IMG/VR virus record: IMGVR_UViG_3300042923_000569
Span: 195,772-259,771 of that record
Origin: a virus
DNA: 64,000 nucleotides
Direction: 5' to 3' (one strand)
This document shows, one piece after another, positions 23,350-47,332 of this stretch (positions are counted from its first letter, which is position 1; every line of letters begins with the position of its first letter). Made by a program: the position numbers and the translations under genes. The notes under the pieces are model-generated. The model made no database searches and was not told the DNA's origin. It saw only the letters and a program-made list of their open reading frames with translations.

Positions 23350-23410
23350 GTAAAACCTTTATCCTTATACCCCATTTATGTGTCGCTAAGCGTTACTGGC
23401 CTTTAGTACT

Positions 23411-31494: not shown

Positions 31495-31564
31495 GTACTT
31501 TTTAAATCGAAAGTATAATTTTTGATGTAAAAAAAAAGCCTCGACAATGCGAGGCTTTTGTGGG

Positions 31565-32419: not shown

Positions 32420-32429
32420 TGAAAACCTC

Positions 32430-32678: not shown

Positions 32679-32680
32679 TT

Positions 32681-32917: not shown

Positions 32918-32948
32918 ATTCTACCTGCTTTTGTCAGTGTGTCAACAG

Positions 32949-33227
32949 TTATTTTACTACTGCTTTCTTTGCCTGGTAACTGCGATAGACAGTTTCAGAA
33001 AGATCAACTAATATCAGGAACCCGGCAGGGAATAACCCCATAAAGGCAGTACTGAAAGAAGCAGGTAACACGAAATGAATAAACGCCTTCCAGCGATCAC
33101 CACCTTCAATGTAATTGAACATTTCGTGATTGCAGATCATCAGTACTAAACAAACGGTAATACTGAATACTACACCAAACAGATAAGAGTATCCAATCCA
33201 CTTCAGGTATTTTGGTAATCGTTTCAT
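32949..33227 (-). CDS. small membrane protein (92 aa)
   Basis: ORF track; hydrophobic. Confidence 0.5.
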   Translation of the reverse strand: MKRLPKYLKWIGYSYLFGVVFSITVCLVLMICNHEMFNYIEGGDRWKAFIHFVLPASFSTAFMGLFPAGFLILVDLSETVYRSYQAKKAVVK

Positions 33228-33339
33228 TTAAAAGTTCTCTACAAAAGTTGCCCTTTCAATGAGTGCATTCTACCAGAAATATCCTTATATGCAAGCACAA
33301 TTTTAAATTAAAAATATAATGTTTATTTGCTCAACGGCA

Positions 33340-33368
33340 TTGACAGACCACCAGCAATAGGGCATAAT
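33340..33368 (+). promoter_or_regulatory. consensus sigma70-like promoter (TTGACA-17-CATAAT), plus strand
   Basis: caTTGACAgaccaccagcaatagggCATAATtatc; shares the ccaccagc spacer with the 24911 and 39437 copies. Confidence 0.5.
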
Positions 33369-33377
33369 TATCACATA

Positions 33378-33411
33378 GACAGCGAAATGTCTTATCCCAT
33401 AGGGTGCGGAG
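33378..33411. repeat. palindromic element, 5' half only (copy 4)
   Basis: gacaGCGAAAtgtc hairpin (stem covaries with copy 1) + cccatagggtgcggag. Confidence 0.5.
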
Positions 33412-33478
33412 TTGTACCTGTAATATATAAATTTAAAACAAAAATAAGTACTGGCTATTATACCAGTACTATGATATA

Positions 33479-33778
33479 CTATTTCCAGATATACTTGGTT
33501 ACGCCGTAATATCCGCGATGCAGTACTACCACATCATTACTTGTCATAACATGGCTTAGGGTAATGTCTACCAGTGTTTCGCCATTAAACAACGCCATCC
33601 AGCCATAACCAGTATCAACATATACATGATGATCGCCATCGCTTTCAACTAATTGCCATTCAAACGGTTTACCGTTCTTATTCCACAATGCCAGATCTTC
33701 GCACGGTTCTGTTACCAGGCGATGCGGAAGATCGGACATATAATCAAAACGTTTTTCCAACTGTTCGATGATTGACAT
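33479..33778 (-). CDS. hypothetical protein (99 aa)
   Basis: ATG at 33778 behind the conserved leader ttaattgagagaattc; the track N-terminal extension merely translates the upstream promoter cassette. Confidence 0.55.
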   Translation of the reverse strand: MSIIEQLEKRFDYMSDLPHRLVTEPCEDLALWNKNGKPFEWQLVESDGDHHVYVDTGYGWMALFNGETLVDITLSHVMTSNDVVVLHRGYYGVTKYIWK

Positions 33779-33854
33779 ATGAATTCTCTCAATTAAAGTA
33801 ACTACATTATAAAGTACTATCATAATAATTACAATAGTACTTTTGATAATGTTT

Positions 33855-34061
33855 TTACGCGGCGTGATACTGCTTGCCTTTTTCTGGATGTTCGCCTGAT
33901 TGTTTCCAACGACAGACTTCCTGCTCTGCTTCGTGACGTGTCGCCCAATCATTCACATAGTTGTCACAGAATCGAACAACAAAACGTTTTTTGCCTGAAA
34001 TATCACCAGTGAATTCAGGAGTAATTGTATAGCGGCGATCTTTAAAAGCCATGATAGTCAT
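33855..34061 (-). CDS. hypothetical protein (68 aa)
   Basis: ORF track, ATG start. Confidence 0.45.
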   Translation of the reverse strand: MTIMAFKDRRYTITPEFTGDISGKKRFVVRFCDNYVNDWATRHEAEQEVCRWKQSGEHPEKGKQYHAA

Positions 34062-34199
34062 CTCACTTAATAAGGTTAGTTAAGTATTCGAGTACATGCA
34101 ACAATACAGGCTGTACTGAATCCCAATTATAAAACATCAAAGCACAAACTACAATACCTAATAAGAATTGCATTTCGCTTTCTCCTACTCAGTAACTAC

Positions 34200-34227
34200 A
34201 TTATAAAGTACTCGCAGAATTAAGCAA
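34200..34227 (-). promoter_or_regulatory. early-type promoter, AGTACT cassette (TTGCTT-16-TATAAT)
   Basis: minus strand aagtacTTGCTTaattctgcgagtacttTATAATgtagttac. Confidence 0.5.
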
Positions 34228-34245
34228 GTACTTTTGATAATGTTT

Positions 34246-34485
34246 TTACTTAGAATATTCTAACAGTGCATCAGCGTCAATAAACCCGGTAACGCCATAT
34301 TCAGAGAAATCAACAACAGGCGTTTGAAACTGTGCCAGGTATGCAATCGACGTGTATTTGCCATAAGTCGCAGTGATATACTCCTGCAATTTGGCGTGAA
34401 CATCAGTAGAGTTTTCGTCTTTGATAACTACTGCGTACACATCAGGAAGGCCAACAGTCGGGGAAACTTTAACAATCTTCAACAT
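34246..34485 (-). CDS. hypothetical protein (79 aa)
   Basis: ORF track. Confidence 0.5.
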   Translation of the reverse strand: MLKIVKVSPTVGLPDVYAVVIKDENSTDVHAKLQEYITATYGKYTSIAYLAQFQTPVVDFSEYGVTGFIDADALLEYSK

Positions 34486-34539
34486 AATGTTTTACTCTCT
34501 CAATTAAAATGATAACTTAATTATACAGTACTATCTAAA

Positions 34540-34806
34540 TTATGCAAGCGATTTGCTATATTTTAAATGTACTTCTAATGCTTGGGACATACGATTACGC
34601 ATTGCCTTTACAACCATTCGACGGCAAGATAATTCTGTTTTATCATCCAGCTTAGATAATCCAGGCCGTTTCATTGAATACTTTTGCAGTACTCGCCAGT
34701 TGGCCCCGGTCTTGCTGTATATGCTGCAAGTGATACGATCATTCAAACAATCGAACAAAACAACTAACGTCCTGGTACTATACAACATAGAATAATTCTC
34801 AGACAT
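34540..34806 (-). CDS. hypothetical protein (88 aa)
   Basis: ORF track. Confidence 0.5.
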   Translation of the reverse strand: MSENYSMLYSTRTLVVLFDCLNDRITCSIYSKTGANWRVLQKYSMKRPGLSKLDDKTELSCRRMVVKAMRNRMSQALEVHLKYSKSLA

Positions 34807-34850
34807 TTTATAACCTCCTGTTATGGGGGATAGTTAATCCCCCGGTGTGG

Positions 34851-35171
34851 TTAGTCGTCTGGAGTTTCTACATCATATGCGGGTTCAATTTTTTCCCCGG
34901 TGTGATCATCATAGAGATCATCATTTTCATAATTCACTTCAACCCCGACGATATGCCATTGACTATCATCGGGATCATTAAAGTTAACTTTGTGATACTC
35001 ATTGATAACAGTATCGATAGCCAGGCAACCGCCATCAGCAGTTACAAAGTACTGGTACTTTTCATAACCGCCGGAATTGAAGCCCCAATTGATTGACGGC
35101 GTACCGTCATCCAATCTGATAGCCTGGCCGATGAATTCATTTTCGAAATTGCTTTGAGTATTCGATAACAT
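34851..35171 (-). CDS. hypothetical protein (106 aa, acidic)
   Basis: ORF track; ATG start. Confidence 0.5.
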   Translation of the reverse strand: MLSNTQSNFENEFIGQAIRLDDGTPSINWGFNSGGYEKYQYFVTADGGCLAIDTVINEYHKVNFNDPDDSQWHIVGVEVNYENDDLYDDHTGEKIEPAYDVETPDD

Positions 35172-35245
35172 GGCTGTATTCCTATCTCGTTTAAAGTAAC
35201 TACATTATAAAGTACTTGATGACATATTACAAGTACTTTTAATGT

Positions 35246-35407
35246 TTACTGATCCCAATAATTCTGTAAAGATTGATATGTGATTTTATATTGATTAGCC
35301 GCTAACATTAACGCATCAGTTTCTGTTTTCCCTTCCTGTTGCATAAGATGCCAGGCATAATCACTAGCTAATTCATAATCGGATGAATCAAACGCTTCTT
35401 CTCTCAT
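35246..35407 (-). CDS. small protein (53 aa; below the track cutoff)
   Basis: hand translation MREEAFDSSDYELASDYAWHLMQQEGKTETDALMLAANQYKITYQSLQNYWDQ; AAGGAA RBS. Confidence 0.4.
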   Translation of the reverse strand: MREEAFDSSDYELASDYAWHLMQQEGKTETDALMLAANQYKITYQSLQNYWDQ

Positions 35408-35479
35408 ATGTTGTTCCTTTCGTTTAAAGTAACTACATTATAAAGTACTCGCGAATATATGCAAGTACTGTTAATGTTT

Positions 35480-35749
35480 TTACGCTAATAAATCTGCCAG
35501 GATGTTATCGCGTTTCATTACTTCTTTTACATAATATCGATAATGAGTAACAGCGGCAATGTAAGTTTCAAAATCAAGGTATTCAGTTTTACCGGCGATC
35601 TGTGCTGTTACATAATAACCGATTTTAATATGTTCGCCGTGAAAATTAAAAGAATCTTTTTGAGTCAGTACTACAATATCCTTTTGAGTAGACAATCTAG
35701 CAACTTCAGTATCTTTTGAATCAAACTCGCAAGTATCTTTAAATGACAT
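35480..35749 (-). CDS. hypothetical protein (89 aa)
   Basis: ORF track. Confidence 0.5.
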   Translation of the reverse strand: MSFKDTCEFDSKDTEVARLSTQKDIVVLTQKDSFNFHGEHIKIGYYVTAQIAGKTEYLDFETYIAAVTHYRYYVKEVMKRDNILADLLA

Positions 35750-35859
35750 TTTTCTTTCTCCGTCTCGTTTCGATATAAGTAAGTATACTCTCTTTTAGTT
35801 TATGTACAAGTACTTTTTAAATTAAAAGTATAATTATATTTTTTAACGGGCACACTTCA

Positions 35860-35937
35860 GCACCCTAATGGGTTTGACCGTTTCGCCGGATTAAGATAAG
35901 TATACTAAAAGGGCTGACTTGCGTCAACCCCTTTTTT
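35860..35937. repeat. palindromic element half in inverted orientation, plus terminator (copy 5)
   Basis: gcaccctaatggg-tttgaccgtttcgccgg is the reverse complement of the copy-1 5' module; followed by gggctgacttgcgtcaaccc T6. Confidence 0.5.
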
Positions 35938-35940
35938 CAA

Positions 35941-36255
35941 TTATTCTTCCATCTGTTGCTGATCATATACATCACCGCTAGCAATCCATAGCAGTTTAAC
36001 ATACAAATCAGTATCGGATTCATTTTCTAATTCGTCATCATCCCATGCACCAGTTTCTAACAGTACTGATACAATCTTTTCGCGAGGTATCGCCTGCAAT
36101 GTTTCCAGGAAGTAAGGAAGTTCTGCTTTAACAGATTCTTCACAGTCGCCTGCATGATGCATAGAATAGACCTGATCCAGATCTCTGAATGTAAACTCAA
36201 TCTTACCACAAGATGACGTGTACCAGATTTGATCTTGCATTTTGTTTTCTCTCAA
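35941..36255 (-). CDS. hypothetical protein (104 aa, acidic)
   Basis: ORF track. Confidence 0.5.
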   Translation of the reverse strand: MRENKMQDQIWYTSSCGKIEFTFRDLDQVYSMHHAGDCEESVKAELPYFLETLQAIPREKIVSVLLETGAWDDDELENESDTDLYVKLLWIASGDVYDQQQMEE

Positions 36256-36323
36256 TTAAAAGTAAGTCAGTAACTACATTATAAAGTACTCGCAGTAATA
36301 AGCAAGTACTTTTGATAATGTTT

Positions 36324-36668
36324 TTACGATTCGTCTGCCATACTATCCACCAGCTCATAAACCGGCTTAAGTAATGCATCAAACGCCGCATGATCACCGC
36401 TAGCAGTATTAGCGATTAAATCAATACCATCATTGCCGTTATTATAGATAAGCAGTATAGAACCGATTTGATAAGGATCATCTTTCTTTAATACGCGGAG
36501 CCAGTCCAGTCCAGTACTGTTAAGGGCTTCTTTGATTGTGCTAACATCACTTGAACGGCGTAACACGAACTCCTCACCATCAAAAATGCTAACCTCATAG
36601 CCACCAGCAAAAACAGTACTCAAAATACAATCAATGATTCTGTTTTCGTTTTCCAGGAGTGCAGCCAT
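36324..36668 (-). CDS. hypothetical protein (114 aa)
   Basis: ORF track. Confidence 0.5.
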   Translation of the reverse strand: MAALLENENRIIDCILSTVFAGGYEVSIFDGEEFVLRRSSDVSTIKEALNSTGLDWLRVLKKDDPYQIGSILLIYNNGNDGIDLIANTASGDHAAFDALLKPVYELVDSMADES

Positions 36669-36755
36669 AATATCCTCTCAATTAAAAGTAATTCGTTTGC
36701 AGTAACTACATTATAAAGTACTCGCTAGTTAATGCAAGTACTTTTGATAATGTTT

Positions 36756-37148
36756 TTACTTATTCAGATAACGATGAAAGTAATACATAGGGGAATGTTG
36801 GCGATCTTTCGCTGGCGGTACTTTGTACTTACAAAGCTCATAAACCTTTTGCATCATCTGGATATCAGACGCTGGCAATGCATAGTACTCAGTCTTTTTA
36901 ACATCAATCGCGAAGTGTTGAAGTAGTAAAGCCCTGGCTGATTCAGCACTTAAGCCAGTGTGAAGAATAGCGGCTTTTTCTTCAAATGCTTTAAGCATTT
37001 GCTCGTTAGGCAAATTCTTACGTGGTAACGCATTGATAGTTGCCTTATGGAATTTCTTACCATTGGCTAACAGCAATTCATGTACTGACATTTCTTTGCC
37101 ATTGAACAAGAAACAAAAACCGTTTTCATAACCTCTGACTTCTAACAT
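36756..37148 (-). CDS. hypothetical protein (130 aa)
   Basis: ORF track. Confidence 0.5.
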   Translation of the reverse strand: MLEVRGYENGFCFLFNGKEMSVHELLLANGKKFHKATINALPRKNLPNEQMLKAFEEKAAILHTGLSAESARALLLQHFAIDVKKTEYYALPASDIQMMQKVYELCKYKVPPAKDRQHSPMYYFHRYLNK

Positions 37149-37347
37149 AGTAATCCTCTCAATTAAAATTAACTACTCAATAAGTTTATTATATAGTACT
37201 CGCTTGTTATTGCAAGTACTATCGAACTACTTATTATGATTATCATTGTACAGGCGATCACATAATCGCCCATGATAAACCCGCCCATTCTTTAAACGTT
37301 TACCCAAAGGCATAAACCATTTAAGATGGAAACCAGTAAGAAAGATT

Positions 37348-37482
37348 ATATCTTTCATTCGGAAACTTCTACAGTCCAGCCTTTATAGGCGTCGATGTAA
37401 TTGATCCAGTCCTGGTCATTCCAACGGGCAGTAGTTACACCAGGAGCTTTAAACTTGTAATGTCCAGCTTTATATGCTTCCA
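37348..37482 (-). CDS. small protein (~44 aa; below cutoff)
   Basis: MTKMEAYKAGHYKFKAPGVTTARWNDQDWINYIDAYKGWTVEVSE behind the conserved ttaattgagaggtgatac leader; ATGA-coupled to a second ~43-aa ORF ending near 37228. Confidence 0.35.
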
Positions 37483-37574
37483 TCTTAGTCATGTATCACC
37501 TCTCAATTAAAATTAACTACTCAATAAGTTTATTATATAGTACTCGCTTGTTATTGCAAGTACTATCGAACTAC

Positions 37575-37976
37575 TTACAGATCTTTTTTACGCTTCACAT
37601 CATTGCAGTTATCATAGTAAGGAATCGATAACATATTACACAACGTGTACAGGGTACGCACACGAACATTGTCAAAATCAACAAAGTTCCCCTGTACTGC
37701 TTCGCGGAAAATAGTATAACCAGTGTATTCATACTGATTACCATGCCCAGGCATAAACTCATTGCGAACTACATCGATCCAGACCTGTTCACCTTCAGGC
37801 CGGTTATAGTGGTTAGCGTTTAACTCGTTTGCCTTTTCCACATCAACCAGGCAGGCGACATAAGTACTGTGATACGTTACGCCTAATGAATCAGTCCAGC
37901 GATTACCAGTAAGAGTAATGCCCTTGATATCTTCCAGGGTTAAACGTGCGATTGTGATTCTAGTATCTTTGTCCAT
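37575..37976 (-). CDS. hypothetical protein (133 aa)
   Basis: ORF track. Confidence 0.5.
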   Translation of the reverse strand: MDKDTRITIARLTLEDIKGITLTGNRWTDSLGVTYHSTYVACLVDVEKANELNANHYNRPEGEQVWIDVVRNEFMPGHGNQYEYTGYTIFREAVQGNFVDFDNVRVRTLYTLCNMLSIPYYDNCNDVKRKKDL

Positions 37977-38102
37977 CTGGTAAACCTCTCAGTTAAAATT
38001 GTGTATCTCGTTTCGATATAAAAGATTATACGCGATTCTAGTTTATGTGCAAGTACTTTTTAAAATGAATTTATAATTATATTTTTTTAATGGGTATAAC
38101 TC

Positions 38103-38186
38103 TGTACCCTATGGGCTAAGCCATTTCTCTGGCGTATGAGTACTATAACAAAAGAGGCTAACTTTCGTCAACCCCTTTTGATAATT
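38103..38186. repeat. degenerate palindromic element half plus degenerate terminator (copy 6)
   Basis: gtaccctatgggctaagccatttctctggcg ... gaggctaactttcgtcaacccc T4. Confidence 0.4.
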
Positions 38187-38188
38187 AA

Positions 38189-38659
38189 TTATAGATACTT
38201 TTCAGGGATAGAATCTTGCTGAATGATTTGCTTTTCAGCCGCGAGTTCTGTTACAAACTCTTTCAGCTTTTTAAAGTACTTGTCATAACCCGCGATTACT
38301 TTATCAGCATCGCCTTTAATCTTGCGTACTGCAATCTTGCGGCTTTCAGCGTACATATGCGGCTTTTCAGTAATGCAAGTTACCCAGGCACCGTCAAATT
38401 CAACTTCCAGATCCTGGAGTTCAACTTCTGAATCATTAAACTTGATTCCTTTGTGAATGTATGACCGGAAAGTTACTGGATCATTCATTCTGATTTTTGC
38501 GGAAACATCATTAATGTCGCCAATCAAACCGCAGAAGATAGCAATACCGCCACCTAGTGCTAGTGGGCTGATTCGAATACTTCCATTAGGAAAGTACTTC
38601 AGAAATGATTCTGTTACTGCTGCCTGGAGTTCGTTGGCTTTCATGTTCTGTTCTCTCAA
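38189..38659 (-). CDS. hypothetical protein (156 aa)
   Basis: ORF track. Confidence 0.5.
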   Translation of the reverse strand: MREQNMKANELQAAVTESFLKYFPNGSIRISPLALGGGIAIFCGLIGDINDVSAKIRMNDPVTFRSYIHKGIKFNDSEVELQDLEVEFDGAWVTCITEKPHMYAESRKIAVRKIKGDADKVIAGYDKYFKKLKEFVTELAAEKQIIQQDSIPEKYL

Positions 38660-38726
38660 TTAAAAAGTTACTATATAACTAATTATAAAGTACTCGCTAG
38701 TTAATGCAAGTACTTTTGATAATTAA

Positions 38727-39170
38727 TTATTCAACAGTTCCCGCCAGGATCTCTCCTACGCGTACCATTTCATAACGATCAACGATTGATAAAGATAGCT
38801 TAGTATCTTTTTGGCGTACACTATACCAGGTATCACCTTCAAACACATAACGGGTAATGTTTTTGTTTGCGATAAGGAACATCAACCATGATTTAGTAGT
38901 TAGTGGCTCTGTGCCAGTTTCACCACGATCACGCCCATAAGCTACAGTATAGCCAGGAACCTTTTTATTGAAGCTGTGACCTTCTGGACACTCGATAGAT
39001 TTATCCAGTACTGACAGATCACCCAGGGCGATTAGTGCCTTTGCACGTTCTGCATCGTTGTAATGCTCAACTAACATTCTACCAGTGTGACCGATATAGC
39101 CATCATAGTTTACAGATGACCAGGTAACATGTTCGCCGTCTTTGATTGCAATAACTGCTGGAGTACCCAT
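38727..39170 (-). CDS. hypothetical protein (147 aa)
   Basis: ORF track. Confidence 0.5.
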   Translation of the reverse strand: MGTPAVIAIKDGEHVTWSSVNYDGYIGHTGRMLVEHYNDAERAKALIALGDLSVLDKSIECPEGHSFNKKVPGYTVAYGRDRGETGTEPLTTKSWLMFLIANKNITRYVFEGDTWYSVRQKDTKLSLSIVDRYEMVRVGEILAGTVE

Positions 39171-39436
39171 TTTTAAATCCTCTCAATTAAAAGTAACATC
39201 GTCTCGTTTCGATATAGGTAATTATATAGTACTGGTAATCGAAAGCAAGTACTTTTTAAAATAAAAGTATAATTAAGAATCAAAAATAAATTTGCATCTA
39301 AAGAAAAATGATGATACGATGTTTATGCGGCGAAAATGTGAGGTTCGCCGCAAGTCCAACGAATGATAACGCATTGTATTACTTTATAGGATAGCTATGG
39401 GTTTGCTATCCTTTTTTTTTTATTTTCGAAAAGGTA

Positions 39437-39465
39437 TTGACTCCACCAGCCAAATAACCGATAAT
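39437..39465 (+). promoter_or_regulatory. sigma70-like promoter (TTGACT-17-GATAAT) with an upstream T-rich/A-rich UP-like tract, plus strand
   Basis: ttttttttttattttcgaaaaggtaTTGACTccaccagccaaataaccGATAATcac. Confidence 0.5.
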
Positions 39466-39473
39466 CACATCAA

Positions 39474-39623
39474 GACGGCGAAACGTCCTTTCCCATAGGG
39501 TGCGGAGCTATGTCTTTAAAGTACTAATTTTCTTACGGGTATTCCTCTGCACCCTATGGGCTACGCCTTTGTCTCGGCTTGTATGTATTATTGCATTTTT
39601 CGGGGATTGAAGTCAACCCCCGA
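39474..39623. repeat. complete quasi-palindromic element (copy 7) with 3' hairpin terminator
   Basis: gacgGCGAAAcgtc; arm cccatagggtgcggag 39492-39507; ~37-nt loop; arm ctctgcaccctatggg 39545-39560; tail ...tcggggattgaagtcaacccccga ttt. Confidence 0.6.
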
Positions 39624-39634
39624 TTTGTAAAGAT

Positions 39635-39991
39635 TTATTCTTCTTGCGTTACACATTCCAGGCGGTAAGTACTGAAATGTTTACGGAATAAATCGCAAGC
39701 CTGATCGCCGTTTTCCGCTTGCATTATAATCGAACCTTCTCGATTATTTTTAATATCGAAATATGTTACTATCCAGCCACGCGTTTTGATTTCAGATAGT
39801 GGCAAGTGAATTGATCCACCGCTGGTTAATTGACCTTCAGGATCTTTGTTGATTGCTTCCTGGTCGATAGTCAGTGAATAGTTTTCACCATCTACAACGT
39901 GGAACAATTCAACAATCGGATCGATGTTTCCACGTTTGTTTGCGATGCGTTCCAGTGTAGAAAGTACTCCGCGAAGTTCTGATAATCTCAT
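39635..39991 (-). CDS. hypothetical protein (118 aa)
   Basis: ORF track. Confidence 0.5.
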   Translation of the reverse strand: MRLSELRGVLSTLERIANKRGNIDPIVELFHVVDGENYSLTIDQEAINKDPEGQLTSGGSIHLPLSEIKTRGWIVTYFDIKNNREGSIIMQAENGDQACDLFRKHFSTYRLECVTQEE

Positions 39992-40030
39992 TTAAAATTT
40001 ACTCTCGTTTGTTGGTGTGTGGTAATAGTA

Positions 40031-40432
40031 CTATACTACTTCAGAAGTAGCAAGAATATTTTCAAAGTATTCGATTAAATCACAAAGTAACTTGTAGCGA
40101 AGTTTACCAGGTTCAGAATCCATTACGCAAAGGTTACGCTGATTCCAATGTAAGTTAACAGCCCGATTAACATCATTATCAGTTAATTGCATTTCAACCG
40201 GATAACCGCAGTGTAAACCCATTTCCACAAATACAGGCTGCAAGTATTCGTGATCGATCCCGGTAACTTCACTGTTAGGAGTGTGGGCGAATACGTGCCA
40301 GCAGATACCATGCTGTCTGGTTAGGTTGAATGATTCACCGTTGATAGTGGTGTAAGTAACATCACGATCTAAACAGTCTTTCATTGCTGTTAGTACTTTC
40401 AGGACTAAAACTGCCTGCTCTGTACGTTTCAT
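40031..40432 (-). CDS. hypothetical protein (133 aa)
   Basis: first ATG (MKRTEQAV...) at 40432 directly behind the conserved ttttaattgagaggcaataca leader. Confidence 0.5.
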   Translation of the reverse strand: MKRTEQAVLVLKVLTAMKDCLDRDVTYTTINGESFNLTRQHGICWHVFAHTPNSEVTGIDHEYLQPVFVEMGLHCGYPVEMQLTDNDVNRAVNLHWNQRNLCVMDSEPGKLRYKLLCDLIEYFENILATSEVV

Positions 40433-40566
40433 TGTATTGCCTCTCAATTAAAATTTGTTTTGTTTCGATACAGGGAAGTTTACACTACTCGAAAGTTTAT
40501 ACAAGTACTTTTATAAAATATTTTTAAACTCTCTGTAACGCATTCTAAGCGATTTAAAGTACTGCC

Positions 40567-40863
40567 TTACACCTTCAACGATTGAACGTTAAAAGCCCCG
40601 CTAATAGGCTTACACGCAAGATCTATAGCATAGTTCGCTTTCTTGTGGATTATGTACATACACGAATCAAACTGATGATTATACGGCATATCATAAACCC
40701 GGCGTTGTACAAGTTCACCACTAACAACAAAGGCCAGGTAGCCGCTGAAGGTACAACTACGCGGGCCAGCACTGGTCATCGTTTTAGCAATACGGGTACG
40801 GGGATCAATCAGGGACGAAATAGGCTTAAGGTTAAGATTGTTATTCATGGCGTTTAGTCTCAA
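40567..40863 (-). CDS. hypothetical protein (98 aa)
   Basis: ORF track; overlapping plus-strand ORF 40582..40857 judged spurious. Confidence 0.45.
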   Translation of the reverse strand: MRLNAMNNNLNLKPISSLIDPRTRIAKTMTSAGPRSCTFSGYLAFVVSGELVQRRVYDMPYNHQFDSCMYIIHKKANYAIDLACKPISGAFNVQSLKV

Positions 40864-40995
40864 TTAAAAGGTAGAATCTAAAACGCTCTGTAATCAATTC
40901 TAAGCGTTTCTAATAGTACTTTAAGCGAATGTATCACAGTACTATTAGAAATGCTTAGCGGGGCATATAGCCCCGCCATGCTGTATTACTTTGTA

Positions 40996-41640
40996 TTACG
41001 CGGCGGTATCTTCAGAGGCTACGCGGAAAGTTTCGATGAAAGTTTCGCGGTCCATGTTTTTAGAAGCTACCAGATCTTTGAGTTCCTGGCTCATGTTGCC
41101 TTTTTCCGGCATATCGTACTGTTTGCCATCGACTTCAACAGTGACGCGGTTGTATGCGTTGTTGCTGCCGGTAAGTGACGCTTTGATCTTCTTACCTACA
41201 CCAGCAACCGCCGCCTGAGCTACTGCCAGATCCACGCCACCAGCTACCAGAAGTTTGAGCATTTTTTCACGTTCTTCTTTCGCTTTCTCTTCCGCTTCAG
41301 CGTTCAGACGTTCACGTTCTGCCTGAGCTTTAACGCGGGCTTCTTCGCGGGCCGCTTCAGCACGTGCGGCTTCTTCTTTCTGGTACTGTACAGCAGCCGG
41401 GATTGCTTTAGACGCTGCAACCAGAATTTTAGAAATCACGTCAGTGTCAGTTGTTTTATCAACAAAGTACTGAGCCAGGTTAGTCGCAACAGTGTTTACG
41501 TGATCAGCAATGTCTGCTTTGTGCTGAGCCAGTACTTCTTTACTGTGTGTCTTACCTTCTTCCGGTGCCGCCAGGGTAGGAGCCTGAGCGAACAGGATTG
41601 AATTCAGTGTTACTTTAGGAGCTTTAGAAGTGTTAGTCAT
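40996..41640 (-). CDS. hypothetical Ala/Glu/Lys-rich coiled-coil protein (214 aa)
   Basis: ORF track; strong GAGGGT RBS; sigma70-like TTGACT-17-TAAATT promoter near 41700-41735 on the minus strand. Confidence 0.6.
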   Translation of the reverse strand: MTNTSKAPKVTLNSILFAQAPTLAAPEEGKTHSKEVLAQHKADIADHVNTVATNLAQYFVDKTTDTDVISKILVAASKAIPAAVQYQKEEAARAEAAREEARVKAQAERERLNAEAEEKAKEEREKMLKLLVAGGVDLAVAQAAVAGVGKKIKASLTGSNNAYNRVTVEVDGKQYDMPEKGNMSQELKDLVASKNMDRETFIETFRVASEDTAA

Positions 41641-42170
41641 GATATTACCCTCGAATTTTTTAAGTTAATTTGTTTGGCCTGATTGTTTCGGCTTGATTAA
41701 AATTTAAACTACTTGTTTCTTTCAGTCAACTACTATTTTCAACTTTCAAGAAACTTTTTTTCTTTCTATCGTCTGGAGCATTTCGCCCTTTCGATAACCA
41801 ACATCTTACACCATCCTTTCTAACTAGCAAGTACTTTTTAAAAACTTTTTTTCGTTCTATCCAAAAGAGAGTTTCTATCTTCAGGACTTGCTAGCCAGGT
41901 TGTTAAAGAGCGGTGTTCCGTGTTGATGTGGTAATAGTACACTAACCATAAAACTCTGCAAGCACTTTCTTATAAAAACTTATAACTTTTTTCATTCGTC
42001 GTTTTTCTTCCTTTATACGCGTAAAGAAACCCACAACACATAGGAAGCATTTACAGCCCTTTAAAGTACTAATCTAAGTGTTTACCAGGCGTAATCCTCC
42101 AGCCTCTTATAGTGCGTCCTATGCGTTCCTATATAGAAGAAACTATTTTCAATCTTTTTAAAGAAAATGC

Positions 42171-42198
42171 TTGCTTCTCTGATTCAGTACTGTATAAT
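42171..42198 (+). promoter_or_regulatory. AGTACT-cassette promoter on the plus strand (TTGCTT-16-TATAAT)
   Basis: aaaatgcTTGCTTctctgattcagtactgTATAATc reading into element copy 8. Confidence 0.5.
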
Positions 42199-42207
42199 CT
42201 TTTATAT

Positions 42208-42312
42208 CGAAGCGAAATTCGTTATCCCATAGGGTGCGGAGATCCGTCTATTGCTTTTTTACTTTTTCCTGGGTATAGCTCCGCACCCTATGGGAAAGGC
42301 CATTTCGCTGGC
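42208..42312. repeat. complete quasi-palindromic element (copy 8) with perfect dyad symmetry
   Basis: cgaaGCGAAAttcg; 4 nt; cccatagggtgcggag; 36-nt loop; ctccgcaccctatggg; 4 nt; gccaTTTCGCtggc. Confidence 0.65.
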
Positions 42313-42492
42313 TTGTACGTATTATTGCATAATTCGATCAGTACTGTCAACAAAAAAGAAAATTAAAATAATGCTTGATCTGGCTGGTGGCTGTGATATT
42401 ATTACCCCGTCAACACGAAAAGACAGCTATTGATTCTGCCTGGTACTAACCAGACGCGGAAGGGGAACTAATGGAAAAACGCAATGAAAAAG

Positions 42493-42620
42493 CGTTTAGC
42501 CATCTAAACGTCTAGAGTGCTAGCCACCTAGATGGATAGCCATTTAGCCGTCTAAACGTCTAGACATATAACCATCCAGAAGTACAGCCATCTTTCCATC
42601 TACACTGCCAGAAGTCTATC
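42493..42620. repeat. iteron-like cluster of CC(A/G)TCTA 7-mers
   Basis: at least 8 copies (ccatctaaacgtctag x2, ccacctagatgg palindrome, ccatttagcc, ccatccag, ccatcttt, ccatctacac, ccgtctgttg) within ~130 bp of non-coding DNA. Confidence 0.5.
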
Positions 42621-42743
42621 CGTCTGTTGATAGCAGATAGGGATAGTACACCCAAAATTTAAGTAAAGTACAACATCGATCTATCCATAATTCTTTGACT
42701 AGGATCATTACATCCTGAAATATACAATACAAAAAATAATAGC

Positions 42744-42806
42744 ACTTAGGATAGTTCCTGGTACTGTAAACATCTACAGCAGGAATTATATTAAGTGCTA
42801 TCAACG
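42744..42806. repeat. long imperfect hairpin / nested inverted repeat
   Basis: atagcactta...ttcctggtactgtaaacatctacagcaggaa...taagtgctat. Confidence 0.4.
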
Positions 42807-42935
42807 TACTTCTAATGTATATTCTCAGTACTAAAGATTCCTGAGAAAGCAGGGTGTCCAGTCAAGACAACTTCGTTACAACGTTACGAGGGGAATCTCG
42901 TATAGTACTGTTACAGTCGGGATTCACCTTCCTGG

Positions 42936-43244
42936 TTACTCTCTTCCGCAACATGGATATATCTTACCATATCTAATTTGCACGTCAAGTACTTTATTTT
43001 TAATTTCCCACATTCTAGTATTCCCTGGGACTGTTGTTTTGTCCAGTGATATCACGCTTCGGTTATAAAATTTACACAACGTTCGAAGTACTTTAAATTT
43101 AAGAATATCCTGAAACTTTTTTGTACTTTTGATGATCCAGGAAAAATCTGATAGGTACTCCAAATTTTTTAGGATTCGTCTTTTTTCTAACGCACCAACC
43201 AAGTTTTTCCCATACCTCATTGTACCTTTTTTAAAAAAGGTCAT
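42936..43244 (-). CDS. possible basic protein (102 aa) inside the 2-kb non-coding hub
   Basis: ORF track only; no clear RBS or promoter seen. Confidence 0.25.
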   Translation of the reverse strand: MTFFKKGTMRYGKNLVGALEKRRILKNLEYLSDFSWIIKSTKKFQDILKFKVLRTLCKFYNRSVISLDKTTVPGNTRMWEIKNKVLDVQIRYGKIYPCCGRE

Positions 43245-43299
43245 TTGTACAAAATGTGCTATTTACATTCGACTTCAGGAAGAGATATAGCGGCAGGGG

Positions 43300-43380
43300 G
43301 TAACAGTACTGTTATGATGTTCTTAGTACTGTTACCATACTCTTAGTACTGTTATGATGTTCTTAGTACTATATCATTAC
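43300..43380. repeat. four tandem ~20-bp direct repeats (TCTTAGTACTGTTATGATGT)
   Basis: gtaacagtactgttatgatgt / tcttagtactgttaccatac / tcttagtactgttatgatgt / tcttagtactatatcattac, about 250 bp upstream of the plus-strand operon. Confidence 0.6.
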
Positions 43381-43625
43381 TATTAATTCTCTGCAATATT
43401 AAAGTACTTTAAACATAATCATAAACCTTCGTAAACGCAATATAAGCGTGTTTGAATCCTGTAGATATCGCTGTGCATATCTCCAGCAAGCAAACAGAAG
43501 CTCTCAGAGAGCGTCCTATGCGGTTATAGGGGGTATTTGGAGGGTATATTATGGTATAGTTCTTAGGTACTGAAATGTTGTATATAGGGTAAATACCTAT
43601 AATATAATAATGGAGAGGGAAGATT

Positions 43626-44135
43626 ATGTTACCATTTTCAATAATGAATCACTACGGTAATGTAGTTGTACGGGATGATTATAAAAGATTTGTAGATGAG
43701 TTAACTAATGACAGTACTAATAAGTTAGTTACATACACACAGTCATACAGTCAGTTAAATGGTACTACATACAATAGGATTTACATGTACGGTACTAATT
43801 CGGTATCTGGAACTATGTGGGGAACACCTTATGGTTCTAGGATGACATGGGACAGTTCATTCAGTAGGGTAATACAGCATTGTTTTCCTACACAGTCTTT
43901 ATATAATGATTTTATTGCTAGTACAAATAATAGCAGGGTAGTATGTTTAGTACGTTCAGATATTACTACTGGAGAGAGTTATATAAGTTTAGCTAGGAAT
44001 GGATATACGAGTTCTACATACGGAAGATTTAGTGGTACGACTATAGATCAGTTCATATACTATGATGAAAGTACTGCTAGGGTGATGATATATAATCCTG
44101 GTACGATGAGTACGCCAGTTTTCTATTACAATTAA
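43626..44135 (+). CDS. hypothetical protein (169 aa), first of three MLPFP-N-terminus paralogs
   Basis: GGAGAGGG RBS; N-terminus MLPFSIMNHYGN shared with the next two genes. Confidence 0.6.
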   Translation: MLPFSIMNHYGNVVVRDDYKRFVDELTNDSTNKLVTYTQSYSQLNGTTYNRIYMYGTNSVSGTMWGTPYGSRMTWDSSFSRVIQHCFPTQSLYNDFIASTNNSRVVCLVRSDITTGESYISLARNGYTSSTYGRFSGTTIDQFIYYDESTARVMIYNPGTMSTPVFYYN

Positions 44136-44148
44136 TGAGGGGAGAGAG

Positions 44149-46170
44149 ATGTTACCATTTCCGGTTTTAAATAATTACGGTAATAATGTTATACCGCCGC
44201 AAAAGGGTATAAAGAAGTTTTCAGTTGGTGGTGGTGGACAGACGGTTATGTTACATTATGCCAATGGTGATTTATATGCAATAGGTAATAATAGCAATGG
44301 TAAGTTAGGTACAGGAGACACTACTGCTATAAGTGGGGCATGGAGAAGAATAATCACTGATGTTCGTTTATATACATGTTCACATACAGGTACTATAGTA
44401 ATAAAGAATGATGGTACTGTATGGTACTCAGGGAATATTACTTCTATATTCACTACTGCATTAGGTTATAATTTTCCTACTACATCTGCATTTACTGAGA
44501 TGACTTCTGCATTTAGTACATTTAGTATAGGGACGATTAAGTACATAGAGATGTATCAGGATTCTGGTCAGCGTTTTCATATGGTTGATGGTTCTGATCA
44601 GTTATGGGGAATAGGAAGTAATCAGTACAATGCATTAGGTAATGGTTCGAATACTGGTAATACGAATTGGGTATCTATAATAAATGGTTCTAGTGCTAAG
44701 AGTGTTCATCATTCATTAAACGTAACTTGGATGGAGAAGACTGACGGGACTTTCTGGAGTTGTGGTACTAATTCATTTGGTACATTGGCGAGTGGTGGTT
44801 CTACTACTACTGTATACAATAATTTCACTCTTATTAATAACTTTTCTATCAAGGCAATAAGTGTAACTCAGTACAACGTAACGTTATTATTAAATGACGG
44901 AACACTTAGAATATACGGAGTAAGTTCTTCTGGACAAGCAGGTAATGGAAGTACTTCAGCGGGTAACTTAATAAATCCATATCAGCCTGCATTAAATAAC
45001 GTTCGCGGGTTAGGAGACAGTACTGGTTCTTTATACAGTACACAAATAAAGGGTGTAATAACTCCTATGGGTGCTGGTACGAACACGAACACATTATTAG
45101 GTACAGGTATAGCGACTGATCCTACATTAACATTTACGAATGCTAATACCGGTGTTATGTCTAACTTAGATTATGCGAATTTAGATTTCTTCACATACGC
45201 GAGTAACACTGCTGGATATGCGGTTATAGGTAATGAGGTATATGCAGTAGGTAATAATGCATATACATTAGGTGGTGCTCTTAGTACTTGGACATTAATG
45301 AATACGCCATTGAGTACTTTATGGACGTCGAATCCTTCTTATAGTAATGTAGTTAACATAAGTACTGCTACACCTCCGTTATCTAGGAATGGACATGCTA
45401 CATGTAGTTATGGTGCTAACAAGTTCATTATGTACGGTGGAACTAACAGTGCTAATGCGTTGTTGAGTGATATATGGATATATGATGCAAGTACTTCAAC
45501 GTGGAGTCAGGTTCCTGCTGTTGCGAGTGCTGTTGCTAGGATTGGTGCAGGAATAAGTGTATTTGGTGATAAGTTATATATATTTGGTGGACAGAGTTCT
45601 ACTGCTACTGGAAGTACTACAAACAGTATGTACAGTGTAGATTTAGTTACTGGAGAGTTCACATTACTTACTACTACTAATACACCTTCAGTCAGGGCGT
45701 ATGCTTCTTTATGTACAGTGGGTTCGAGTTTATACGTATGGGGTGGAGCGAGTTTAAGTACATTCCATTCATTCAATCCGAGTACTAACGCATTTGTCAC
45801 ATTAACATCTTCACCTATATCTAGTGTAGTAGATGCGAATATGGAGACGGATGGTATTGATTTATACATTAACACATCGAGTAGTACTGCATTTTACAAG
45901 TACGATATAAGTACTGGATTATGGGTATTACTTGCTAATAAGCCGGTTAACAACGCATTGAAGTACGTTTATAATTCTGGTTATTTGTATGCTACAGTTG
46001 CGAGTACATCTACGATATATGCTTATAGGGTAGAAACGAACATGTGGAAAATGGTTGGTAGTACTACATTGAATACTACTAAGGGTTGTATGAGTTCTGC
46101 TGGTAAGAGTGTATATTACAGTGGTGGATTAACTGCGGTAGACAGTAATAACTTTTACAGAATATCATAA
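44149..46170 (+). CDS. RCC1-repeat plus Kelch-repeat beta-propeller protein (673 aa); candidate adhesin or host-interaction protein
   Basis: RCC1-like units (GNNSNGKLGTGDT, GSNQYNALGNGSN, GTNSFGTLASGG, SSSGQAGNGS) in the N-half; Kelch-like units (LYIFGGQ...YSVDL, LYVWGGAS) in the C-half; GAGGGGAG RBS. Confidence 0.6.
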   Translation: MLPFPVLNNYGNNVIPPQKGIKKFSVGGGGQTVMLHYANGDLYAIGNNSNGKLGTGDTTAISGAWRRIITDVRLYTCSHTGTIVIKNDGTVWYSGNITSIFTTALGYNFPTTSAFTEMTSAFSTFSIGTIKYIEMYQDSGQRFHMVDGSDQLWGIGSNQYNALGNGSNTGNTNWVSIINGSSAKSVHHSLNVTWMEKTDGTFWSCGTNSFGTLASGGSTTTVYNNFTLINNFSIKAISVTQYNVTLLLNDGTLRIYGVSSSGQAGNGSTSAGNLINPYQPALNNVRGLGDSTGSLYSTQIKGVITPMGAGTNTNTLLGTGIATDPTLTFTNANTGVMSNLDYANLDFFTYASNTAGYAVIGNEVYAVGNNAYTLGGALSTWTLMNTPLSTLWTSNPSYSNVVNISTATPPLSRNGHATCSYGANKFIMYGGTNSANALLSDIWIYDASTSTWSQVPAVASAVARIGAGISVFGDKLYIFGGQSSTATGSTTNSMYSVDLVTGEFTLLTTTNTPSVRAYASLCTVGSSLYVWGGASLSTFHSFNPSTNAFVTLTSSPISSVVDANMETDGIDLYINTSSSTAFYKYDISTGLWVLLANKPVNNALKYVYNSGYLYATVASTSTIYAYRVETNMWKMVGSTTLNTTKGCMSSAGKSVYYSGGLTAVDSNNFYRIS

Positions 46171-46180
46171 GGAGATTGAA

Positions 46181-47332
46181 ATGTTACCATTTCCAATTAT
46201 AAGTAATTTAAGACAACAGAGTATCTATAAGATACAAAAGTTTGTTGCTGGTTCATCGCACGTAGCAATATTAGGAACGAATGGACAGTTATTCACTAGA
46301 GGTGATAATACCTATGGACAATTAGGGGATACTTCTTATACTACCAACTATCAGGGCTGGCAATTAAGTTTATCAGACGTTGCTGGTGTATATGGTGATC
46401 GTTCACAGAATACGGTTGCCATTAAGAAAGATGGTACTGTGTGGGTATGTGGTAGATTTTGGACTGCTACACAGTTCGGTTTTACATCTACAACAGGTGC
46501 ACATTCATGGACTGAAATTACTTCGTACTTACCATTCAGTACTAATACTATTAAGGATATACAGGTTGGTTATCAGATGAGTGCATTTGTGCTTAATGAT
46601 GGTAGTGTATATTTTTGTGGTACGAATACGAATGGACAATTCGGTAATAACAATACTACTAACTTAACGAGTTATACCAAATCCCTAGCAACGGATGTAC
46701 AGAAGTTATATATACAGCATCCTCTTTGGCAGGGACAAAACGTTATATCATATATAGACAGTACTGGTAAGCCTTATGCCTGTGGTTATAACGGTACTAA
46801 GCAGGTATCTAGTAGTTCAACTATATCATCGTACAGTACATTCCAGTTATTATCGAGTGCAGTATATACTAGTGCAGCGATTGCTGGTACTACTAGTTGG
46901 TACATAAGAAGTAACGGCTCTGGTGATTATTGCGGGTCGGCCTCTGTATTACAGAATACAAACAGTGGTATATTGAATATGTATTCTGCTACAGGTAACG
47001 GTGCTACACAATTAGGAGAAATACAGTTAGCATCATTTGCAATTGTATATGGTTATAAAACTACTAATACGTTTTGGGCTAAGACTTACTATTCTGGTGG
47101 TGGGTCAGAACTACCACTAATGAATAATGTATCGAACAGGGCTAACTGGTTACAGCAAAGTACTATGCCGGTGAGTGCAGGTGTATATAGTGGAATGGCT
47201 ATGGGTAATTATAATAATGGATTTATATTATTCTTAGGTTCAGACCAGCAAGAAATATTTGGTGTTGGATTAATGAGTTCAAATAATGCAAGTACTGCAT
47301 TTGAGAAGTTAAGTATTCCAGAATTTAAATAA
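46181..47332 (+). CDS. RCC1-repeat beta-propeller protein (383 aa)
   Basis: classic RCC1 unit GDNTYGQLGDTS and GTNTNGQFGNNNTT; N-terminus MLPFPIISN. Confidence 0.6.
   Translation: MLPFPIISNLRQQSIYKIQKFVAGSSHVAILGTNGQLFTRGDNTYGQLGDTSYTTNYQGWQLSLSDVAGVYGDRSQNTVAIKKDGTVWVCGRFWTATQFGFTSTTGAHSWTEITSYLPFSTNTIKDIQVGYQMSAFVLNDGSVYFCGTNTNGQFGNNNTTNLTSYTKSLATDVQKLYIQHPLWQGQNVISYIDSTGKPYACGYNGTKQVSSSSTISSYSTFQLLSSAVYTSAAIAGTTSWYIRSNGSGDYCGSASVLQNTNSGILNMYSATGNGATQLGEIQLASFAIVYGYKTTNTFWAKTYYSGGGSELPLMNNVSNRANWLQQSTMPVSAGVYSGMAMGNYNNGFILFLGSDQQEIFGVGLMSSNNASTAFEKLSIPEFK

Follow-up and report, generated by a model that had tools for sequence, protein, structure and literature searches.

In bacteriophage T5, the untranslated Repeat Region 3 of 1.2 kb is highly conserved and dense in repeats. 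It lies mostly inside the left terminal repeat (LTR), overruns the end of that repeat by 270 bp, and holds the candidate injection stop signal (iss), the mechanism of which was still undescribed in a 2026 preprint. Its elements follow the order of paired DnaA boxes, 'direct repeat C' (DRC) with palindromes E-J, 'direct repeat D' (DRD), and the LTR end. In this study, we analysed a region of about 2 kb (41641-43625, called the hub below) in a stretch of 64,000 nucleotides of viral DNA (IMG/VR virus record IMGVR_UViG_3300042923_000569, positions 195,772 to 259,771 of that record). This whole stretch, which has a G+C content of ~36%, is the window to which all coordinates refer. The hub lies at the switch between minus-strand early genes and a plus-strand operon, and a first-pass annotation had proposed that its repeats, hairpins and opposed promoters resemble a replication origin, a partition site or an enhancer-like control region. 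With confidence a little better than even, we read the hub as a control region of a Rak2-like jumbo phage that sits where the long direct terminal repeat (DTR) ends, with a large operator of the type recognised by the host methionine repressor MetJ at its core, and not as an origin. What we show is the anatomy of the hub, its conservation, the match of its octamer array to the MetJ matrix, and the position of the DTR edge in the relatives.

The cluster previously described as at least eight iteron-like sites is present and goes far beyond chance, but it is really a run of contiguous octamers with the grammar of a MetJ operator:

42490..42625, no strand assigned: 17 contiguous 8-bp units resembling the MetJ binding site (metbox), of which 14 pass the published threshold

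Units 1-9 read, in order, AAGCGTTT AGCCATCT AAACGTCT AGAGTGCT AGCCACCT AGATGGAT AGCCATTT AGCCGTCT AAACGTCT, and units 10-17 read AGACATAT AACCATCC AGAAGTAC AGCCATCT TTCCATCT ACACTGCC AGAAGTCT ATCCGTCT; Tandem Repeats Finder gave the array a period of 48 (6 x 8 bp). BLAST of the array against E. coli genomes returned two non-significant plasmid matches (E = 2) and no met operator. The host operators are too short for BLAST, and a matrix scan was therefore used instead. The whole window was scored with the symmetrised metbox matrix and the thresholds of Augustus & Spicer 2011 (PMC3228920), under which each box has to reach at least 1/4 of the consensus score (AGACGTCT matrix) and the whole site at least the consensus score. 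The only sites found in the 64 kb were groups of 3, 9 and 2 boxes in one register, with ~98 bits summed. In the positive control, the 5.7-kb metJBLF region of E. coli, the scan picked out the operators of metJ/metB and of metF, each with 4 boxes, and nothing else. The window was also block-shuffled 40 times, and arrays in the shuffled sequence had at most 3 boxes, against the 14 passing boxes of the real array.

The base frequencies of 96 boxes from six jumbo phages correlated with the host matrix at r = 0.91, and T at position 3 and A at position 6 never occurred in these 96 boxes, as in 832 host half-boxes. The array boxes are as degenerate as natural host boxes. Moreover, the conservation of the array across genera is periodic by 8 bp, with position 1 invariant in 94% of the columns and position 5 in 31%, and the order of the positions matches the tolerances of the matrix. 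By this quantitative match, the 'iterons' appear to be tandem copies of the type of site bound by the host methionine repressor MetJ. Since host operators hold 2-5 boxes, an array of 17 units may be called a 'super-operator'. TrpR, which has CTAG-containing half-sites that are also 8 bp apart, was considered as the binder and rejected because the boxes read (C/G)(A/G)TCT and not GNACT. A search by tblastn over 50,697 phage records for a phage-encoded MetJ matched only host contaminants, and the MetJ query matched nothing among the open reading frames (ORFs) of the window.

No close match to the window was found among the same 50,697 phage records. The window is a relative of the Rak2-like jumbo phages (GAP32, CBB, BF, XbC2). 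It is collinear with GAP32, CBB and XbC2 (Mimasvirus), with Kaldavass, with BF and the pEa_SNUABM phages (Eneladusvirus), and more distantly with Asteriusvirus and Alcyoneusvirus; Kaldavass is unclassified and clusters with XbC2 in all alignments. The placement of the hub is the same as in the Rak2-like relatives. On one side is a minus-strand gene for a protein of ~214 amino acids (aa) (the first early gene, 40996-41640; phrog_20181, function unassigned), and on the other are plus-strand Kelch/RCC1-like genes, the CBB homologues of which are annotated as structural proteins. The hub has no genes, as had been supposed: none of its ORFs in 41641-43625, including those of 102 aa and 84 aa, had Pfam or PHROG support, and tblastn of every stop-to-stop frame against nine relatives gave only short matches in several frames and on both strands of the same DNA. 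Matches of this kind indicate conservation at the nucleotide and not the protein level. Coding capacity was thus ruled out by the missing family support together with the lack of any frame-specific tblastn conservation. An Rfam scan of 38000-47000 found nothing at E <= 1, and there is no tRNA or tmRNA in the window.

The comparison with the equivalent junction of related phages, which the first-pass annotation had recommended, revealed a conserved hub core. Within the hub, megablast detects only the block from the promoter to the array in other genera, at 78-83% identity, and in 24 kb there is just one other such stretch. The core exceeds the genes on either side in conservation; the protein encoded next to it shares no more than 47-56% identity with its homologues.

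The ends of several relatives have been determined or annotated. CBB has a terminal repeat of 22,456 bp (doubled read depth, with support from pulsed-field gel electrophoresis), XbC2 has a DTR of 17,581 bp, assigned by PhageTerm as 'long DTR, T5 type', and vB_Ec-M-J has an annotated DTR of 21,525 bp. The records of CBB, BF and XbC2 begin at one homologous base, which is the end of the invariant motif ...GACTTCAGGAA(C/G)(A/G)GATA|, and the records that span the junction (GAP32, Kaldavass and the right-hand junction of CBB) continue TAGCGGAAGGGG..AACAGTACTG. By homology to the relatives with determined ends, the genome end, or outer DTR boundary, is predicted inside the hub at 43287|43288. The elements at the two boundaries are as follows:

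43100..43287, no strand assigned: block that closes the DTR, conserved, with the invariant motif GACTTCAGGAAGAGATA at its end (43271-43287)
43288..43310, no strand assigned: unique-side junction TAGCGGCAGGGGGTAACAGTACT, with TAGCGG, which repeats in inverted form the flank on the unique side of the inner boundary
23384..23404, no strand assigned: inner DTR boundary motif, outside the hub, the reverse complement of CTAAAGGCCAGTAACGCT|TAGCG, with the boundary at 23388|23389

The last ~190 bp of the DTR are kept across genera, and the spacing is shared by the outer edge of Asteriusvirus, GACTTC-N11-|TAGTGG. A search of the window for further copies of the outer-boundary motif found only the one at 43271-43287. 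In CBB, XbC2 and vB_Ec-M-J, the inner boundaries lie within 1 nt of one another, at CTAAAGGCCAGTAACGCT|TAGCG. From both boundary motifs, the DTR of this phage is predicted to span 23389-43287, a length of 19,899 bp. Its unique flanks form a short inverted repeat, ..TCGCTA|DTR|TAGCGG.., which is kept in CBB and XbC2, with TAGTGG at the outer edge in Asteriusvirus. These inverted flanks suggest symmetric nicking at both edges; there is no extended similarity between the two DTR edges beyond the short TAGCG flank. The motifs GACTTC-N11-|TAGYGG and GGCCAGTAAYGCT|TAGCG could be used to predict the DTR ends of Rak2-like genomes that were deposited collapsed or circular.

Arrays of 13-19 units were found in all Mimasvirus, Eneladusvirus and Asteriusvirus relatives examined, with 12 in SHEFM2K and fHe-Yen9-04. 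The window array also matches, weakly, that of the T5-like Aeromonas phage AhSzq-1. In this phage, 28 consecutive passing boxes (L007:2916-3139, 221 bits) lie in a large non-coding region near the pre-early gene A2 and are followed by a DnaA box. BLAST with the AhSzq-1 array matched 96 phage records, comprising Asteriusvirus coliphages of the 121Q/PBECO4 group, T5-like phages of Vibrio, Aeromonas and Providencia, and the Mimasvirus and Eneladusvirus group; many of these matches fall in an annotated DTR or 10-900 bp from the record start. The listed hosts (Enterobacterales, Vibrionales, Aeromonadales) are all in orders reported to have MetJ, except for one Mimasvirus listed for Xanthomonas. In the T5-like Vibrio and Aeromonas phages, the arrays hold 12-38 boxes and lie near DTR ends or record starts, with no recognisable promoter upstream. 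A third lineage is represented by an IMG/VR contig (L024:7257-7560) with 38 units and 360 bits; its terminase is similar to the terminases of siphoviruses of Pseudoalteromonas and Achromobacter. Altogether, T5-like Aeromonas and Vibrio phages and IMG/VR contigs unrelated to them carry metbox super-arrays of 5-38 units, often less than 1 kb from the contig or record end; the other loci are L030:468-603 (Pontus), L021:4854-4981 (AhSzw-1), L025:5003-5122 and L023:435-474. A G-rich motif stands directly upstream of the arrays, namely CAGACGCGGAAGGGG in the window (42452-42466), CAGGCGCAGGAGGG in Pontus (L030, ~455-470) and AAGGCGCAGGAGGGG in AhSzq-1 (L007, ~2885-2900). There are hints here that the module of G-rich motif and array is homologous in, or was exchanged between, jumbo and T5-like phages.

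Klebsiella phage KP13-7 (Alcyoneusvirus) keeps the jumbo palindrome, promoter, hairpin and ..CTAATGGAAAAA.. leader, after which it carries Fur-like repeats (L028:2800-3020) and no metboxes. T5 has 4 sites with at least 14/19 of the Fur consensus positions, against 0.2 in shuffles, and the count for such repeats, KP13-7 included, is 4-5. None of the hubs that carry metboxes has Fur-like sites. Within 'direct repeat C / palindromes E-I' of T5 (L008:470-640, T5 9468-9640), the Fur-box-like sequence TGAGAATCATTATCA matches 14/15 of the 7-1-7 Fur consensus; no paper was found that links Fur boxes with the T5 terminal repeat. MetJ-like and Fur-like arrays are thus positional alternatives in the DTR-edge hub of two unrelated phage groups with long DTRs.

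The other features of the hub were located as follows, from left to right:

41701..41729, minus strand: sigma-70-like promoter TTGACT-17-TAAATT, from a consensus scan and by sequence match only, facing the first early gene (40996-41640)
41803..41835, minus strand: early-promoter cassette AGTACTTGCTA-N16-TAAGAT, read from the sequence
42171..42198, plus strand: promoter TTGCTT-16-TATAAT, reading into the long palindrome
42211..42309, no strand assigned: long palindromic hairpin with the core CCCATAGGGTGCGGAG / CTCCGCACCCTATGGG, 31-nt arms, a 17-bp perfect core and a fold z of -5.6
42321..42350, minus strand: convergent promoter TTGACA-18-AATAAT, 11/12 matches, with TG, entering the palindrome from the right
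42375..42402, plus strand: outward promoter 'P+' TTGATC-16-TGaTATTAT with extended -10, directed toward the DTR edge and away from the early genes
42409..42489, plus strand: leader with hairpin 1 (42409-11 with 42422-24), hairpin 2 (42437-43 with 42450-56) and the motif CGCGGAAGGGGAACTAATGGAA
42471-42515, plus strand: mini-ORF of 14 codons with its ATG at 42471 and a strong Shine-Dalgarno (SD) sequence, preceded by GGAAGGGGA
42484..42510, minus strand: terminator-like hairpin and T-run for leftward transcripts, involving the first two boxes and the A-run of the mini-ORF
42739..42801, no strand assigned: hairpin with 22-nt arms that are 86% complementary, lineage-specific and unalignable in the relatives
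43305..43384, no strand assigned: four AGTACT-centred 20-bp tandem units (AGTACT at 43305, 43325, 43345 and 43365; 3.3 copies by the repeat finder), just outside the DTR

Every feature that the first-pass annotation had listed was recovered in its place, to within a few bases. These included the two promoter-like sites on the minus strand (41729-41701, TTGACT-17-TAAATT, and 41803-41835, the AGTACTTGCTA cassette), the plus-strand promoter followed by its complete palindrome, and the nested hairpin of ~60 nt. Generic sigma-70 consensus matches were not enriched in the scan (10 against 9.7 expected), and the case for the promoters therefore rests on their conservation in relatives. P+ is kept across Mimasvirus, Eneladusvirus, Asteriusvirus and Alcyoneusvirus. 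The equivalent of the 42171-42198 promoter in KP13-7 and A4 reads TTGACA/TTGACT-17-TATAAT, and the convergent promoter beside the palindrome has a mirror-image layout in KP13-7. The minus-strand early genes at 33-40 kb are preceded by repeated AGTACTTGC...AGTACTtTATAAT cassettes, and the cassette at 41803-41835 is of this type. In the alignment, the terminator-like sequence at 42484-42510 is kept in Mimasvirus and Eneladusvirus; no plus-strand terminator was found after the octamer array. The central hub is bracketed by a 22-nt direct repeat (42104-42125 and 43501-43522, 86% identical, containing GCGTCCTATGCG) with a spacing of 1,397 bp, and a tandem repeat of 9-10 bp, TGCGTCCTA, lies at 42113-42132.

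The leader holds the near-invariant motif CGCGG(A/T)AGGGGA(A/G)CTA(A/T)TGGAA. Its hairpins showed covariation, with GUC/GAC against AGA/UCU in one case and CUGG/CCAG against CUAG/CUAG and GGGG/CCCC in the other. In the alignment, 94.9% of the cells were paired and 6/9 pairs had changed on both sides, a level reached in 0/500 shuffles; these compensatory changes stem from only about three lineages. The mini-ORF with its strong SD had been recognised correctly, but as a coding unit it is not kept in the relatives. It was rejected as a leader peptide, having 3 codons in CBB, GAP32 and XbC2, 8 in A4 and 14-16 elsewhere, and ATT in place of the ATG in SHEFM2K and SD-1_S14.

The palindrome at 42211-42309 belongs to a family of dispersed promoter-hairpin cassettes within the predicted DTR, and the window holds 9 copies of its motif where 0.04 would be expected. 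The cassettes lie on the plus strand, opposite to the early genes, at 24945-25060, 28661-28676, 33396-33411, 38100-38115, 39468-39585 and 42203-42320. The best-preserved ones (24.9 and 39.4 kb) consist of a consensus sigma-70 promoter, a small hairpin, a long hairpin with the core CCCATAGGGTGCGGAG, and a terminator-like hairpin with a T-run. The remaining copies are partial, and the family also occurs in KP13-7 and A4. The Rfam scan matched none of the copies at 38.1, 39.5 and 42.2 kb. These cassettes may be small RNA genes or insulators.

The four 20-bp repeats with AGTACT cores are present as annotated, but the hexamer is a genome-wide signature and not a mark of the hub. The window holds 258 copies against 21.6 expected by composition (12-fold) and 48.5 by a second-order Markov model, which makes AGTACT the most over-represented hexamer. 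The density in the hub (6.6 per kb) is 1.6 times that of the window (4.0 per kb) and is unremarkable given this excess throughout the window. The hexamer was over-represented 16-26 times in every Rak2-like locus sampled (excess noted in L001-L006, L013, L017, L026 and L028); it was absent from the T5 and Pontus loci, and in AhSzq-1 it was ~3-fold over expectation, like the E. coli control locus. AGTACT was consequently rejected as a hub-specific element, the excess being common to the whole phage clade. The sequence of the 43305-43384 repeats is not conserved, and the relatives carry 3-4 copies of (A)GTACT(G) there. Inside long ORFs, AGTACT occurs in all three codon phases, with 61, 28 and 21 copies. 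The early promoter cassette holds two AGTACT 20 bp apart, and 20 bp is the commonest short spacing (11 cases); this may explain why the copies at 43305-43384 resemble stacked promoter halves. A protein-binding, modification or promoter-associated motif are the candidate explanations for AGTACT.

We propose the following layout, outward from the early genes: leftward early promoters, the palindrome with its convergent promoters, the conserved outward promoter with its two-hairpin leader, the 17 MetJ-type boxes, ~660 bp of terminal sequence, the cleavage/boundary motif with the end at 43287|43288, the AGTACT repeats, and the upstream region of the Kelch/RCC1 genes. Host MetJ with its corepressor S-adenosylmethionine (SAM) would bind the array cooperatively, with one dimer per octamer. 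The resulting filament of ~136 bp would begin ~80 nt downstream of the outward promoter and would stand in the path of RNA polymerase. Cooperative binding by MetJ-SAM with filament formation is fairly probable. The filament could then act as a conditional, sequence-specific and SAM-responsive barrier or checkpoint that keeps the early DTR module apart from the genome end or from the remaining genome, where it could block RNA polymerase, block polymerase-driven DNA entry, or organise the end region or end processing. That such a barrier works in the manner of Repeat Region 3, or the injection-stop region, of T5 is a tentative suggestion made by analogy. We regard as a long shot the wider idea that operator arrays for host metabolite-sensing repressors (MetJ-SAM in this phage and in the T5-like phages of Vibrio and Aeromonas, and Fur-like in T5 and KP13-7) form an injection-stop or DTR-edge checkpoint common to T5-like siphoviruses and Rak2-like jumbo myoviruses.

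Several observations weigh against this explanation. Half of the phage boxes have C at position 3 (AGCC), which is a minority base in host metboxes; this is the one clear deviation from the MetJ base statistics, and the excess is strand-asymmetric. The array lies at about +80 to +215 downstream of P+, and no met gene is nearby or controlled, unlike in host operators. Jumbo and T5-like phages differ in how the array is oriented with respect to the DTR end. XbC2 DNA resists some restriction enzymes, and base modification might interfere with repressor binding. Searches of the window's six-frame ORFs by phmmer, with A1, A2, dmp and further LTR proteins of T5 as queries, gave only E > 0.3 at the sensitivity of sequence-level comparison, and no TTWTNCACA match to a DnaA box was found in the hub. 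In a scan of a genome collection, a pattern of three metboxes matched at least 120 loci, mostly in taxa without MetJ; Gemmatimonadales, Anaerolineae, Bacteroidota, Mycobacterium and Oceanospirillum are among the matches listed. In viral contigs, scrambled control patterns matched 3 and 1 loci against 8 for the metbox pattern, which makes them only 3-8 times rarer. We also infer the MetJ occupancy and the function of the array throughout.

The bacterial arrays are mostly homogeneous and intergenic, with 3-14 units of the type (AGCCGTCT)n, (AGCCATCT)n, (AGACGTCT)n or AGCC(R)TCT. Examples among the loci L033-L152 are L104:5152-5175, which flanks a tRNA gene, L100:1755-1866 and L070:7329-7496. The AGCC unit is the commonest unit in the phage arrays, and AGCC-type arrays in bacteria without MetJ mean that octamer arrays can exist and persist without this repressor, a further point on the same side. 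The phage arrays are unlike these bacterial ones in that they are heterogeneous and kept box by box across genera, with variants that are bases tolerated by MetJ; this is an argument and not a proof.

The array could instead be a decoy of 13-38 boxes, the many copies of which on replicating DNA would titrate MetJ and derepress methionine and SAM synthesis, including metK, to feed methyltransferases and protein synthesis; Fur-like arrays in relatives would do likewise for iron uptake. The number of boxes, far above the 2-5 sufficient for regulation, fits such a role, as do the recurrence of arrays in unrelated lineages (jumbo, T5-like and L024), the exchange of metboxes for Fur-like boxes at the same position, and the several SAM-dependent DNA methyltransferases encoded by XbC2. 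However, a decoy would have no use for a constant location at 470-800 bp from the DTR edge, or for a conserved promoter and leader that direct transcription into the array, and one or two early copies would bind only ~17-34 dimers. T5 degrades host DNA within minutes, and derepression of the host would be pointless if the relatives do the same. We consider the decoy unlikely, and the alternation of metboxes and Fur-like boxes at the DTR edge in two groups with long DTRs leads us to prefer a role at the genome end over a pure decoy. A role at the genome end could also be played by a phage protein, either a ribbon-helix-helix (RHH) protein of the MetJ/Arc/ParG/omega type or one resembling a small terminase subunit, for which the array would be a pac-like packaging site, or a centromere, at a defined distance from the cut. 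RHH proteins typically bind tandem arrays of 7-8-bp units, the distance from the array to the DTR edge is roughly constant in jumbo phages and, where the ends are known or assumed, in T5-like phages, the small terminase subunit is not identified in these phages, and the octamer arrays of bacteria without MetJ suggest that other binders may exist. Still, we think a phage binder quite unlikely. At each position the box statistics follow the host MetJ matrix, a binder of the same specificity would be required in every one of the unrelated phage groups, Fur-like boxes at the same position in relatives suggest the use of host repressors, and the tblastn search gave no MetJ-like gene in the phage records. 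In a Pfam-level scan of 74 ORFs that cover the predicted DTR together with its edges (22834-44135; ~290 kb of the genome lie outside the window), no Rep, ParA, ParB, ParG or RHH family was matched, which goes against both this binder and the partition site proposed earlier. The confident matches in the scan were only Band_7/SPFH, DUF932 and a ParE-like toxin domain, with three weak matches besides; the other ORFs of the predicted DTR encode small proteins of unassigned function behind repeated AGTACT promoter cassettes.

The same scan bears on a replication origin with iterons, divergent promoters and hairpins. The hub is rich in repeats, free of genes and located at a strand switch that coincides with the minimum of the cumulative GC skew, and it has promoters able to activate an origin by transcription. 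On the other hand, the skew follows gene orientation and its minimum is therefore uninformative on the origin. The units are contiguous octamers and not Rep-binding repeats of 17-22 bp in helical phase, the hub lacks DnaA boxes, no initiator is encoded nearby among the 74 ORFs, and the equivalent region in T5 was judged an unlikely origin, the T5 origins mapping near the genome centre. An origin at this site is thus highly improbable, and that part of the earlier interpretation did not hold. What did hold is that the hub is a conserved cis-acting region with opposed promoters and is not junk; the label of an enhancer is unsupported. We find it equally hard to believe that the region is kept for an RNA. 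In that case the outward promoter would produce a structured non-coding transcript or leader that starts with the 5' hairpins and consists mainly of the array, and the repeats would be preserved for the folding of the RNA or for its binding by protein. The strong conserved promoter directly upstream, the compensatory changes in the two leader hairpins and the fold z of -2.8 for 276 nt would agree with an RNA. The near-palindromic array, however, folds well by construction, and its conservation tracks box positions and not pairing partners. There is also no Rfam family at E <= 1, the T5-like arrays lack a recognisable upstream promoter, and no plus-strand terminator follows the array.

If MetJ binds the array, a virulent phage would exploit a metabolite sensor of its host solely by means of DNA sites and without any gene of its own; the sites could serve as barrier, sensor or decoy. 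If the checkpoint exists, the jumbo phages would deliver their DNA in two steps, with the DTR of ~20 kb entering first and further passage gated by host SAM or iron; the reading of the hub as a control region at the DTR edge predicts T5-like behaviour in jumbo phages. Arrays that score as host-repressor operators at the equivalent position in T5 relatives and in an unrelated jumbo group offer a concrete and cheap approach to the injection-stop problem of T5. No paper linking MetJ or metboxes with T5-like or jumbo phages was found in a literature search of incomplete coverage.

Among the known systems, the left end of T7 has short repeat arrays beside the terminal repeat and, within ~1-1.6 kb of the genome end, sigma-70 promoters (A1-A3) that face inwards, as nearly all genes do. 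The hub resembles it in the clustering of early promoters by the genome end and in the repeat arrays beside the terminal repeat. It differs in the length of the DTR (~20 kb here, 160 bp in T7), in the array of host-repressor type and in the extra outward promoter. In CBB, all but 34 of the 554 ORFs are on one strand. Iteron origins and RHH centromeres (parC, parH, omega sites) share with the hub the short direct repeats, the gene-free region and the promoters, and the proteins that bind such centromeres typically use tandem arrays of 7-8-bp units. The hub differs from these systems in having no gene for Rep, ParA, ParM or a centromere-binding protein among the 74 ORFs and no DnaA boxes, and in unit length and spacing, which do not fit.

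The array is closer to the MetJ operators of E. coli and Salmonella (consensus AGACGTCT), since in both the 8-bp units are contiguous, without spacers, the base preferences match and the thresholds are passed. It differs from them in its 17 units (12-38 in other phages), against 2-5 in host operators, in its location ~80 nt downstream of a promoter instead of overlapping it, and in its setting beside the DTR end of a phage genome with no methionine gene.

The comparison with T5 covers the whole architecture. There is no detectable sequence homology between T5 and the hub, and the hub is without the DnaA-box inverted repeats and DRD repeats that Pontus and AhSzq-1 have. Given the lack of A1, A2 and dmp homologues and of DnaA boxes, the analogy is architectural only; two-step DNA entry is not known for Rak2-like phages. 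The two regions are nevertheless alike in that a large, conserved and untranslated stretch full of repeats extends across the DTR boundary (in T5, 9194-10409, the LTR ending at 10139; here 41641-43625 with the predicted end at 43287), in that this non-coding region outdoes the neighbouring ORFs in conservation, and in that both hold arrays resembling the binding sites of host proteins. The T5-like Vibrio and Aeromonas phages carry a metbox array at the place of the DRC repeats and palindromes E-J of T5. Vibrio phage Pontus keeps the order of T5, with DRD, metboxes and paired DnaA boxes, and in it 17 metboxes replace repeat C and the palindromes.

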